Notes: generated by a model from the letters alone, not told the origin. Positions 18,731-23,155 are shown, counted from the stretch's first letter. The stretch is DNA of 64,000 bases from Eledone cirrhosa (GCA_964016885.1 OZ024763.1:27466001-27530000); one strand, 5' to 3'. Numbers and translations: made by a program.

Positions 18731-20522
18731 GTGTGGCCTCGTGGTAAAGGTATTATACTTACGATCATGGGTTCGATTCCTGCACTCGGTTGTGTGTTGT
18801 GTTCTTGAACAAAACACTTCATTTCATATTTCTCCAGTGGTAAGGGTGTTGGACTTACGATCATAATTTCACAGGTTCGATTCCTGCACTCGGTTGTATG
18901 TTGTGTTCTTGAGCAAAACACTTCATTTCATATTTCTCCAGTGGTAAGGGTGTTGGACTTACGATCATAATTTCACAGGTTCGATTCCTACACTCGGTTG
19001 TGTGTTGTGTTCTTGAGCAAAACACTTCATTTCATATTTCTCCAGTGGTAAGAGTGTTGGACTTACGATCATAATTTCACAGGTTCGATTCCTACACTCG
19101 GTTGTGTGTTGTGTTCTTGAGCAAAACACTTCATTTCATATTTCTCCAGTGGTAAGAGTGTTGGACTTACGATCATAATTTCACAGGTTCGATTCCTACA
19201 CTCGGTTGTGTGTTGTGTTCTTGAGCAAAACGCTTCATTTCATATTTCTCCAGTGGTAAGGGTGTTGGACTTACGATCATAATTTCACAGGTTCGATTCC
19301 TACACTCGGTTGTGTGTTGTGTTCTTGAGCAAAACACTTCATTTCTCGCTGCTCCAGTGGTAAGAGTGTTGGACTTACGATCATAATTTCACGGGTTCGA
19401 TTCCTGCACTCGGTTGTGTTGTGTTCTTGAGCAAAACACTTCATTTCTCGCTGCTCCAGTGGTAAGAGTGTTGGACTTACGATCATAATTTCACGGGTTC
19501 GATTCCTGCACTCGGTTGTATGTTGTGTTCTTGAGCAAAACACTTCATTTCATATTTCTCCAGTGGTAAGGGTGTTGGACTTACGATCATAATTTCACAG
19601 GTTCGATTCCTACACTCGGTTGTGTGTTGTGTTCTTGAGCAAAACACTTCATTTCATATTTCTCCAGTGGTAAGGGTGTTGGACTTACGATCATAATTTC
19701 ACAGGTTCGATTCCTACACTCGGTTGTGTGTTGTGTTCTTGAGCAAAACACTTCATTTCATATTTCTCCAGTGGTAAGAGTGTTGGACTTACGATCATAA
19801 TTTCACAGGTTCGATTCCTACACTCGGTTGTGTGTTGTGTTCTTGAGCAAAACACTTCATTTCATATTTCTCCAGTGGTAAGAGTGTTGGACTTACGATC
19901 ATAATTTCACAGGTTCGATTCCTACACTCGGTTGTGTGTTGTGTTCTTGAGCAAAACACTTCATTTCATATTTCTCCAGTGGTAAGAGTGTTGGACTTAC
20001 GATCATAATTTCACGGGTTCGATTCCTGCACTCGGTTGTGTGTTGTGTTCTTGAGCAAAACACTTCATTTCTCGCTGCTCCAGTGGTAAGAGTGTTGCAC
20101 TTACGATCATAATTTCACGGGTTCGATTCCTGCACTCGGTTGTGTGTTGTGTTCTTGAACAAAACACTTCATTTCTCGCTGCTCCAGTGGTAAGGCCGTT
20201 GGACTTACGATCATAATATCACGGGTTCGATTCCTGCACTCGGTTGTGTGTTGTGTTCTTGAACAAAACACTTCATTTCTCGCTGCTCCAGTGGTAAGGG
20301 TGTTGGACTTACTATCATAATTTCACGGGTTCGATTCCTGCACTCGGTTGTGTGTTGTGTTCTTGAACAAAACACTTCATTTCTCGCTGCTCCAGTGGTA
20401 AGGGTATTGGACTTACGATCATAATATCGTGGTTTCAATCCATCGACTGGGTTATGTTCTTGGGCAAAACACTTAATTTCACATTGCTCCAGTAATAGTA
20501 AGAGTGTTGGACTTACTATCAT
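18731..20522 (+). repeat. Tandem array 1 of the SINE-B tRNA-like head, 104-bp unit, ~17 copies, intact B-box
   Basis: CCAGTGG at 18834, 18938 and onward. Unit: CCAGTGGTAAG(G/A)GTGTTGGACTTACGATCATAATTTCAC(A/G)GGTTCGATTCCT(A/G)CACTCGGTTGTGTGTTGTGTTCTTGAGCAAAACACTTCATTTC.... The first unit has the A-box TGGCCTCGTGG. Confidence 0.95.
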
Positions 20523-20709
20523 AATTGTTTCTACTTTAGGTACAAGGCCAGCAATTACCCAGTGCATTACTGGTACTTTATTTTATCGACCCCACCCCGT
20601 AAGGATGAAAGGCAAAGTTAACCTCGGCGGGATTTGAACTCAGATCGTAAAGGGACATAACTATGCTGGAAAGCATGGCATCCGACCCTCTACCGATACT
20701 GCCAATCCA
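20523..20709 (-). mobile_element. SINE family A inserted antisense within one unit of the SINE-B head array
   Basis: Reverse-complement match to 12534-12720; it splits ..CATAAT|(AT)GTCGTGAG. Confidence 0.9.
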
Positions 20710-22865
20710 TGTCGTGAGATCGGTTCCTGGACTGGGCTCTGTGTTGTGTTCTTGAGAAAAAACACTTCATTTCATATTGTTCCAGTGGTAAAGGTGTTGG
20801 ACTTACGACCTTAATGTCGTGGGTTTGATTCCTGGACTGGTCTCTGTGTTGTGTTCTTGAGAAAAACACTTCATTTCATATTGTTCCAGTGGTAAAGGTG
20901 TTGGACTTACGACTTTAATGTCGTGGGTTTGATTCCTGGACTGAGCTCTGTGTTGTGTTCTTGAGAAAAACACTTCATTTCATATTGTTCCAGTGGTAAA
21001 GATGTTGGACTTACGACCTTAATGTCGTGGGTTTGATTCCTGGACTGGTCTCTGTGTTGTGTTCTTGAGAAAAACACTTCATTTCATATTGTTCCAGTGG
21101 TAAAGATGTTGGACTTACGACCTTAATGTCGTGGGTTTGATTCCTGGACTGGTCTCTGTGTTGTGTTCTTGAGAAAAACACTTCATTTCATATTGTTCCA
21201 GTGGTAAAGATGTTGGACTTACGACCTTAATGTCGTGGGTTTGATTCCTGGACTGGTCTCTGTGTTGTGTTCTTGAGAAAAACACTTCATTTCATATTGT
21301 TCCAGTGGTAAAGGTGTTGGACTTACGACTTTAATGTCGTGGGTTTGATTCCTGGACTGGTCTCTGTGTTGTGTTCTTGAGAAAAACACTTCATTTCATA
21401 TTGTTCCAGTGGTAAAGGTGTTGGACTTACGACTTTAATGTCGTGGGATTGATTCCTGGACTGAGCTCTGTGTTGTGTTCTTGAGAAAAACACTTCATTT
21501 CATATTGTTCCAGTGGTAAAGGTGTTGGACTTACGACTTTAATGTCGTGGGTTTGATTCCTGGACTGAGCTCTGTGTTGTGTTCTTGAGAAAAACACTTC
21601 ATTTCATATTGTTCCAGTGGTAAAGGTGTTGGACTTACGACCTTAATGTCGTGGGTTTGATTCCTGGACTGGTCTCTGTGTTGTGTTCTTGAGAAAAACA
21701 CTTCATTTCATATTGTTCCAGTGGTAAAGATGTTGGACTTACGACTTTAATGTCGTGGGTTTGATTCCTGGACTGGTCTCTGTGTTGTGTTCTTGAGAAA
21801 GACACTTCATTTCATATTGTTCCAGTGGTAAAGGTGTTGGACTTACGACTTTAATGTCGTGGGTTTGATTCCTGGACTGGTCTCTGTGTTGTGTTCTTGA
21901 GAAAAACACTTCATTTCATATTGTTCCAGTGGTAAAGGTGTTGGACTTACGACTTTAATGTCGTGGGTTTGATTCCTGGACTGGTCTCTGTGTTGTGTTC
22001 TTGAGAAAAACACTTCATTTCATATTGTTCCAGTGGTAAAGGTGTTGGACTTACGACCTTAATGTCGTGGGTTTGATTCCTGGACTGGTCTCTGTGTTGT
22101 GTTCTTGAGAAAAACACTTCATTTCATATTGTTCCAGTGGTAAAGGTGTTGGACTTACGACTTTAATGTCGTGGGTTTGATTCCTGGACTGAGCTCTGTG
22201 TTGTGTTCTTGAGAAAAACACTTCATTTCATATTGTTCCAGTGGTAAAGGTGTTGGACTTACGACTTTAATGTCGTGGGTTTGATTCCTGGACTGAGCTC
22301 TGTGTTGTGTTCTTGAGAAAAACACTTCATTTCATATTGTTCCAGTGGTAAAGGTGTTGGACTTACGACTTTAATGTCGTGGGTTTGATTCCTGGACTGA
22401 GCTCTGTGTTGTGTTCTTGAGAAAAACACTTCATTTCATATTGTTCCAGTGGTAAAGGTGTTGGACTTACGACCTTAATGTCGTGGGTTTGATTCCTGGA
22501 CTGAGCTCTGTGTTGTGTTCTTGAGAAAAACACTTCATTTCATATTGTTCCAGTGGTAAAGGTGTTGGACTTACGACTTTAATGTCGTGGGTTTGATTCC
22601 TGGACTGAGCTCTGTGTTGTGTTCTTGAGCAAAACACTTCATTTCATATTGTTCCAGTGGTAAAGGTGTTGGACTTACGACTTTAATGTCGTGGGTTTGA
22701 TTCCTGGACTGAGCTCTGTGTTGTGTTCTTGAGCAAAACACTTCATTTCATATTGTTCCAGTGGTAAAGGTGTTGGACTTACGACTTTAATGTCGTGGGT
22801 TTGATTCCTGGACTGGTCTCTGTGTTGTGTTCTTGAGAAAAACACTTCATTTCACGTTGTTCCAG
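20710..22865 (+). repeat. Tandem array 2 of the SINE-B head, 104-bp unit, ~20-21 copies, mutated B-box
   Basis: CCAGTGG at 20782, 20886 and onward. The unit carries GGTTTGATTCC, AC(C/T)TTAATGTCGTG and GAGAAAAACAC variants distinct from array 1. Confidence 0.95.
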
Positions 22866-23155
22866 TATACCCAAGTGAAAATGAGTACCAACAATAGCTG
22901 GAGATTTAACACTACGATGGACTGGCGTACTGTCCAGTGAAGGGGGAGTCCTGTTGTCTCAGTCGCTTAACGCCACGAGAACCGGTATAATAAGCACCGG
23001 CCTGATGAACCTCCGGGCTTGGGACAGACATTAACCCTGTGCTGGAGTGGTGCCCTGTATAGGGTTGTGGTCCTCTTGTACTCTCAGTCCCTTCACGCCA
23101 CTGAGGCCGGGAGAAGCACAGGCTTGATGAGCCTGGTTTAGGACAGACTTTAACC
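22866..23155 (+). mobile_element. SINE-B body and 3' tail, with a diverged tandem duplication of the tail
   Basis: AAAATGAGTACC..CGATGGACTGGCGTACTGTCCAG..CTCAGTCGCTTAACGCCAC..CTGATGAACC..GGACAGACATTAAC, followed by a second copy ending GGACAGACTTTAAC. Confidence 0.65.

Follow-up and report, generated by a model that had tools for sequence, protein, structure and literature searches.

A SINE-derived satellite with an antisense SINE between its halves: probable separate amplification of two sub-arrays from heads that diverged before the insertion

A tandem array of tRNA-like heads in this DNA falls into two internally homogeneous halves, one with intact and the other with mutated B-boxes, on either side of an antisense SINE, and it raises the question of how the halves came to differ and whether the SINE caused the difference. 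An earlier note on this DNA had proposed that the insertion acted as a barrier to homogenisation, and that the left half is a dense cluster of candidate TFIIIC sites or a source of multimeric tRNA-like RNA. From our analysis of the whole stretch of 64,000 nt that contains the array (the window), we favour another order of events: the array is a SINE-derived satellite (sSat) in which unequal exchange probably amplified each half on its own, starting from different heads of an old multi-headed copy, and the antisense SINE probably arrived once those heads had diverged. We give this reading a probability of about 0.68.

As assembled, and when cut at the junction motif, the array consists of 38 heads, of which 17 lie to the left (L01–L17, 18740–20490), one is split by the insert (S18, 20491–20525 plus 20711–20783) and 20 lie to the right (R01–R20, 20784–22863). 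TRF reported a period of 104 on both sides, with 17.0 copies and 95% matches at 18770–20526 and 20.7 copies and 98% matches at 20709–22866. The earlier description of ca. 38 tandem 104-bp heads, split by an antisense SINE, is thus borne out, the insert being situated on the minus strand inside head S18 (Table 1). The first head, L01, has an 8-bp deletion between its A-box and its B-box. At the other end, the last unit runs on into the remaining CORE domain and then into a 3′ module that is present twice (about 22912–23036 and 23036–23156, with 93 of 137 positions identical in a global alignment); this is an old duplication, the sole match of the module in the window is its own duplicate, and no partner LINE for it was found within the window. 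Neither a simple-repeat tail at the 3′ end of the host SINE nor a target-site duplication of at least 5 bp around it was found. Of the genuine SINE ends claimed for the array, therefore, the A-box at 18734 and the CORE body at the 3′ end stand, with the qualification that the A-box has a mismatch at position 7 and that the simple-repeat tail is absent. The window also carries other arrays with units of ca. 100 bp, and a 33-bp array derived from the other SINE.

Table 1. Features of the array and of a second multi-head locus in the window (positions counted from the first letter of the window).
Feature	Position	Strand	Remarks
Head L01, worn 5′ end of host CORE-SINE	18725..18835	+	A-box 18734-18744 (one mismatch), B-box 18770-18780 consensus
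Left sub-array L02-L16, 104-bp units	18836..20393	+	Consensus B-box in 15/15, mean identity 94.7%
Relic head L17, 97 bp	20394..20490	+	Broken B-box; one copy of 7-bp internal repeat gone
5′ part of split relic head S18	20491..20525	+	
Inserted SINE, second high-copy family, nearly full length	20526..20710	-	
3′ part of S18	20711..20783	+	B-box C kept, two other B-box positions broken
Right sub-array R01-R20, 104-bp units	20784..22863	+	Mean identity 97.6%, B-box C-to-T in all
Remaining CORE domain and first copy of 3′ module of host SINE	22864..23036	+	
Old second copy of 3′ module, host SINE	23036..23156	+	75% over 93 columns
Second multi-head locus, same SINE subfamily, three heads	13553..13825	+	Same junction, unrelated 5′ flank, not amplified

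The parent of the unit is recognisable in two monomers in the window (32238–32341 and 46099–46202, minus strand), which are 70–72% identical to a left unit. Both have consensus A-boxes, and the monomers have the tRNA-related head with A and B boxes that is expected of a CORE-SINE, the segment 46146–46215 scoring above the Rfam tRNA threshold (30.5 bits). The A-box AGT and that of the body are 104 bp apart in both monomers as well as in the array and, since the same stretch measures 104 bp in the monomers, the period is set by this short shared motif. This confirms that the heads are joined at a motif common to the A-box and the CORE body and, as the unit aligns to monomers and the terminal units reach the SINE ends, that the satellite grew from a SINE head. 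The body at ca. 22806–22888 resembles, by eye only, the consensus and primer of BivaCORE-SINE2 shown in the supplement of PMC4824008. Judged from the AGT–AGT spacing and from this likeness, each unit takes in the A-box's 3′ half, what remains of the tRNA-like part, and the CORE domain's 5′ part.

The same kind of junction occurs outside the array. The three heads of the second multi-head locus in the window (the 13-kb heads) are 104 bp, 97 bp and truncated, respectively, and are joined as in the array; the two complete ones cluster with heads of the array and not with the monomers (89/91, not starred). A search of public runs returned part of the stretch in 20 of 23 rows, 16 of them at small shares that were taken as no evidence, and four runs were aligned to 20290–20890, where the signal is swamped by paralogues. 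The head SINE family is high-copy in these runs and monomers appear to be dominant, with 10,368 raw reads of run X21 leaving at 20493 into a monomer body. Besides the additional locus in the window, junction-bearing contigs were present in runs X4 and X14, two joints in X14 being compatible with head-to-head junctions. A contig of 125 letters from organism B runs across the 20784 junction; it carries 17 other letters and has a depth of 226, compared with 13–24 in the remaining 7 of that run's listed pieces. Metagenome contigs, viral contigs and prokaryotic genomes, when scanned for the junction pattern or the CORE motif, yielded 0 matches, as expected for an animal repeat.

The consensus B-box GGTTCGATTCC is present in 16 of the 17 left heads and in none of the 20 right heads, as previously noticed; the right heads carry GGTTTGATTCC (19 of 20) or GGATTGATTCC (1 of 20). 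The B-box C that is mutated in the right units is essential. This C is the state found in the left units, in L17, in S18, in the three 13-kb heads and in the monomers, and the right founder must therefore have mutated once. As read from the aligned heads, the halves contrast by a single CpG-type C-to-T mutation of the right founder that was then copied 20 times, and not by 20 losses. Within L02–L16, 0 of the 16 variable columns fall in the 11-position B-box (P = 0.14, in a test of low power), so the invariance of the B-box within the left half is not significant and selection leaves no sign in the compared units. The pattern given for the B-box of mouse SINEs, GTTCRAWTC (PMC3245943), is matched by the left units and not by the right units. 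Octopus TEs are described as lowly methylated, and satellites as relatively more so (PMC9476566).

The left and right majorities differ at 19 of 104 sites (81.4% identity), and differences within the halves amount to 5.3% among L02–L16 and 2.4% among R01–R20. In a tree that included the two complete 13-kb heads and left out the truncated third, L01–L16 (97/95) and R01–R20 (96/88) formed supported clades and S18 joined the right clade (93/91); beyond this the tree is star-like, with an open fork at which L17, the left clade, the clade of right units plus S18 and both 13-kb heads meet. The tree used for AU tests left out M33k and the truncated 13-kb head; a single clade of L01–L17 was not rejected (p = 0.39), in tests too weak to resolve where L17 or the 13-kb heads belong. 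The proposal of two separately homogenised sub-arrays is thus sustained for L01–L16 and R01–R20 but does not extend to L17 and S18, which are diverged relics, and the tree check suggested in the earlier note returned its left and right clades but left L17 in the open basal fork.

L17 is uninterrupted and lies to the left of the insert, and it differs at 18 of 97 sites from the left majority and from the right majority alike. S18 differs from the right majority at 13 of 104 sites, and its 3′ part has derived letters in common with the right array. A 7-bp deletion common to L17 and 13-kb head 2 was considered as proof of their common descent and rejected, because what was lost is a single copy of a tandem 7-mer and the pair is not closer than other heads are (20 of 97 sites). 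The left sub-array L02–L16 contains two 3′-end subtypes plus a duplication of a block of 6–7 units, and the mean distance between left units dips at lag 6–7 (3.5–4.2 differences) compared to lag 4–5 (6.5–6.8 differences). There are 11 distinct sequences among the 15 left units and 9 among the 20 right units, in ordered blocks. The block structure of the left half points to unequal exchange, through which concerted evolution is described as usually proceeding (PMC5411766).

The insert, in antisense orientation, is one copy of a dispersed SINE and is 81–91% alike to long matches elsewhere in the window, without target-site duplication except possibly for one base. Compared to the majority of the 8 other copies in the window it has substitutions at 4 of 171 filtered positions, the lowest value among the 9 copies, or at 7 of 182 by a strict count without filter and with two flank columns dropped, plus 2 indels. 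The corresponding distances to the majority of the other head lineages are 10/98 for the left half, 10/102 for the right half, 11/95 for L17 and 11/99 for S18. The difference between insert and halves has a Fisher p of 0.003 with the filtered count, 0.026 with the strict count and 0.08 if indels are charged to the insert only, and a comparison of nearest copies (insert, 13/184; left against right, 19/104) gives p = 0.006. In public runs, among the rows listed, the family majority departs from the insert at 20541, 20657 and 20680 and by a 5-base indel, in agreement with the result from the window. Since the insert is 2–4% from its family majority and each half is ca. 10% from that of the heads, the insert looks younger than the left/right split. 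The insertion thus most likely post-dates the divergence of the founder heads, on a contrast that rests on about 100–180 sites (p = 0.08 under the strictest count), with family majorities drawn from 8 copies and 6 other head lineages of one window and with two elements whose rates may differ. The expansion on the right (2.4% within) is of about the same young age as the insert, which therefore may help to keep the halves apart now.

The history that we favour would start from the two AGT motifs of the parent SINE, which lie 104 bp apart in the A-box and in the CORE domain: a slip or a template jump between them could have produced a multi-head SINE, and the recurrence of the junction at 13553–13825 and in contigs of other runs is in line with such an event. 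At least four heads (the left founder, L17, S18 and the right founder) lie 10–12% each from their common majority, a distance over which they would have drifted before amplification. Local unequal exchange may then have expanded one founder per side, whereas L17 and S18 would have been too diverged to join, already separating the halves. The younger SINE, which lies in S18, would have landed there last, widening the mismatched block to 390 bp.

The barrier proposed in the earlier note reverses this order: a uniform array would have been cut by the SINE insertion, homogenisation would have been blocked, and the halves would then have diverged. Several observations are compatible with it, such as the two clades that flank the insert, the clustering of S18's 3′ part with the right-hand units (93/91), one letter change common to the 5′ part of S18 and L16, and the p of 0.39 for a clade of L01–L17; in addition, the edge units of arrays are described as often diverged (PMC5411766). 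It would, however, require an insert that is 2–4% from its family majority to be older than a divergence that has taken each half ca. 10%, and S18 11/99, from the head majority. Moreover, L17 has no insertion within it and yet lacks most of the letters derived in the left half, being 18/97 from both halves. We consider this explanation unlikely: the barrier idea is weakly supported at best by these comparisons, and its inference is probably backwards in time. A fusion at the insert of two separate SINE-derived arrays or SINE copies, instead of one element that was split, is very improbable. The halves do differ as heads of separate loci do (left half against 13-kb head 2, 18/97), and the 3′ module is present twice, but the array has a single true 5′ end and a single full CORE domain, and once the insert is taken out a full-length head is regained in exact register, with no more than one base duplicated. 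This exact register of the insert and the uniqueness of the relic heads also make it hardly credible that the length or the order of the array is an artefact of assembly, as does the arrangement in ordered blocks of 11 distinct sequences in 15 left units and 9 in 20 right units. What would suggest an artefact is that no contig among those listed from four runs spans the junction stretch, and that the sole assembly gap of the window (25231–25430) is 2 kb downstream of the array. In run X1 a residual depth of ca. 14–17 lacks the common other letter at two relic positions, a result that counts weakly against an artefact; X1 is possibly the source sample.

A further question is whether the left half works as a Pol III unit or binds TFIIIC. 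A-boxes were scored against a consensus pattern that agrees with T1, G3, A7 and G11 as given in PMC11724288. The first A-box, TGGCCTCGTGG, has a C at position 7, where A is conserved, the internal left A-boxes have 1–2 mismatches, with G3 missing in all, and the right units show an A-box match in shifted position, 36 bp ahead of the broken B-box; in no internal head are a consensus A-box and a consensus B-box found together. The only plus-strand T4 in 18730–23160 is at 20581, inside the insert, and there is none within the units. Rfam gave no match in the array at E ≤ 10, and ARAGORN found no tRNA in it. The folds of left units are no more stable than those of shuffled sequences (z −1.1 and −0.3). 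The long hairpin of the right unit (z −2.9) is inherited, since a monomer head also forms it (z −3.6). With its only T4 in the insert, no Rfam match, damaged internal A-boxes and left units that fold like shuffles, the array is unlikely to yield the multimeric tRNA-like RNA and the 104-nt ladders previously suggested, and it does not qualify as an array of complete type 2 Pol III genes.

A left half selected as a TFIIIC cluster, acting as an ETC-like boundary, or serving as a Pol III unit that gives a long multimeric RNA ending at the T4 at 20581, would be suggested by 16 consecutive consensus B-boxes in 1.6 kb and by left units free of T4. In yeast, the B-box is reported as essential and sufficient for stable TFIIIC binding, with the A-box needed to place TFIIIB (PMC11724288), and TFIIIC without Pol III is described as marking fission yeast boundaries and mouse ETC loci (PMC3245943). 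Nevertheless, a single founder explains the uniform B-boxes, which show no significant excess of conservation (P = 0.14), and it is the half with broken B-boxes that expanded further (20 units versus 16). Furthermore, no left unit has a consensus A-box, the array is without Rfam match although the monomer head passes the tRNA threshold, and none of the 101 ORFs of at least 150 aa listed for the window was recognised as a host gene. We therefore regard selection for either role as quite improbable. By analogy with yeast, TFIIIC may occupy the left B-boxes passively, without starting transcription, and the locus is most likely without selected function. We would give equally little credence to a broader scenario, in which a multi-headed CORE-SINE subfamily seeds satellites in this genome and in at least one relative, and arrays that keep their B-boxes become TFIIIC docking sites and chromatin boundaries. 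If it were true, the locus would come with its own control, 16 intact B-boxes lying beside 20 broken ones, and binding of TFIIIC to the left half only would offer a convenient way to test, within a genome, whether a boundary can arise from B-box density alone.

The array is an ordinary SINE-derived satellite, of a kind already described in reptiles and bivalves, and it has four of the characters by which sSats are recognised. Its tandem unit (104 bp) is homologous to, and shorter than, a dispersed SINE, represented here by the monomers; it contains 15 left and 20 right regular units, for a minimum of at least four middle monomers; its terminal units reach the SINE terminus, with the A-box at 18734 and the CORE body plus 3′ module at 22864–23156; and its units are more alike than dispersed copies, with identities of 94.7% and 97.6% within the halves versus 68–83% to other heads. 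As to the many loci with subtelomeric bias that are typical of sSats, the window has one other multi-head locus, and junction-bearing contigs occur in runs X4 and X14. We found no report of a cephalopod SINE-derived satellite in the open-access papers that our searches listed, and the supplements of PMC10702118 and PMC11481361 may hold split arrays. The locus would extend SINE-derived satellites to what looks like a cephalopod. It is a tidy case of a SINE fragment becoming a satellite, in which relic founder heads let the order of events be read, and it warns that an insertion at the boundary of two sub-arrays need not be the cause of that boundary.

Among the known systems, the reptile SINE-derived satellites have units that contain box B, reach up to hundreds of copies and show subvariants by locus (Vassetzky et al. 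2023, PMC10702118). The squamate sSats described there resemble our array in having a unit shorter than the SINE, that of snake sSat3 spanning the 3′ head, which includes box B, and some of the body, and in their long homogeneous loci with locus-specific subvariants and, in some loci, insertions; a minor variant keeps both SINE termini. Unlike them, the array derives from an invertebrate CORE-SINE, its 104-bp unit regenerates a partial A-box at each junction, and its halves differ by 18%. The tandem SINE arrays of Scapharca broughtonii (PMC11481361) have a comparable layout, with a first copy of complete head and cut tail, middle copies cut at both ends and a last copy of complete tail; however, they are described with 4–15 units and target-site duplications, whereas here there are 38 heads, no duplication was found and another SINE splits the array. 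The parent element is similar to BivaCORE-SINE2 (PMC4824008), judged by eye, in its tRNA-like head followed by a matching domain, and differs from it in being multi-headed; the octopus elements OR1 and OR2 have also been named CORE-SINEs (PMC4824008, PMC4758252). Tandem repeats with tRNA-like promoter boxes are likewise found in the amphibian PolIII/TAN, OAX and Rana/polIII, as summarised in PMC10702118, although their units are longer (ca. 250–360 nt where given) and no parent SINE is known for them; PolIII/TAN is transcribed in vitro, whereas in our array the parent SINE is evident and the internal A-boxes are damaged. Finally, ETC loci and TFIIIC boundary elements (PMC3245943) resemble the left half in having B-boxes without a complete class III gene, but they are defined by measured TFIIIC occupancy and by conservation.

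The joint between successive heads of the main array (38 tandem 104-bp CORE-SINE heads), formed at the AGT common to the A-box and the CORE domain, recurs at a second, three-head locus of the same SINE subfamily, which is ended by a 101-bp tandem array (13829-14416, 5.8 copies) showing no relation to the SINE heads beside it. The 3' module of the main array is duplicated at 22900-23156 (+ strand). As with the heads, its two copies meet at a short stretch of similarity, here shared by the beginning of the module and the terminus of the SINE (AGA..TTAAC).

The high-copy SINE family inserted in the main array frequently forms head-to-tail joints with itself in the public sequencing runs compared with window 20290-20890. 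One such joint (20709 to 20521) was found in 93 contigs of run X1 and 69 of run X4, and a comparable one lies inside the window (23158-23570). The 33-bp unit of a second SINE-derived array is an internal piece of this family, and partial SINE ends are present on both sides of that array.

Other features of the window

Feature	Position	Strand	Details
Tandem array	575-1483		units 108 bp, then 103 bp
Isolated tRNA-Phe-like sequence	8307-8381	+	ARAGORN; Rfam 49.3 bits
362-aa open frame	11501-12589	-	weak zf-RVT match
Three-head SINE locus	13553-13825	+	heads 104 bp, 97 bp, truncated
Second SINE-derived array	28428-29032	-	33-bp unit, 18.4 copies
Mariner-type transposase fragment	31219-31728	+	HTH_48
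LINE	40148-45547	-	two long open frames

The 1156-aa frame of the LINE contains endonuclease and reverse transcriptase domains, and its 642-aa frame had no Pfam match; the 3' end of this element has a second fragment near 34417-34959, and the 362-aa frame is likely a LINE 3' fragment. A TA microsatellite directly follows the tRNA-Phe-like sequence.

The edges of the 108/103-bp array are diverged. Since several arrays of ca. 100-bp units occur within 64 kb, these results suggest that units of this size are readily amplified in this genome.
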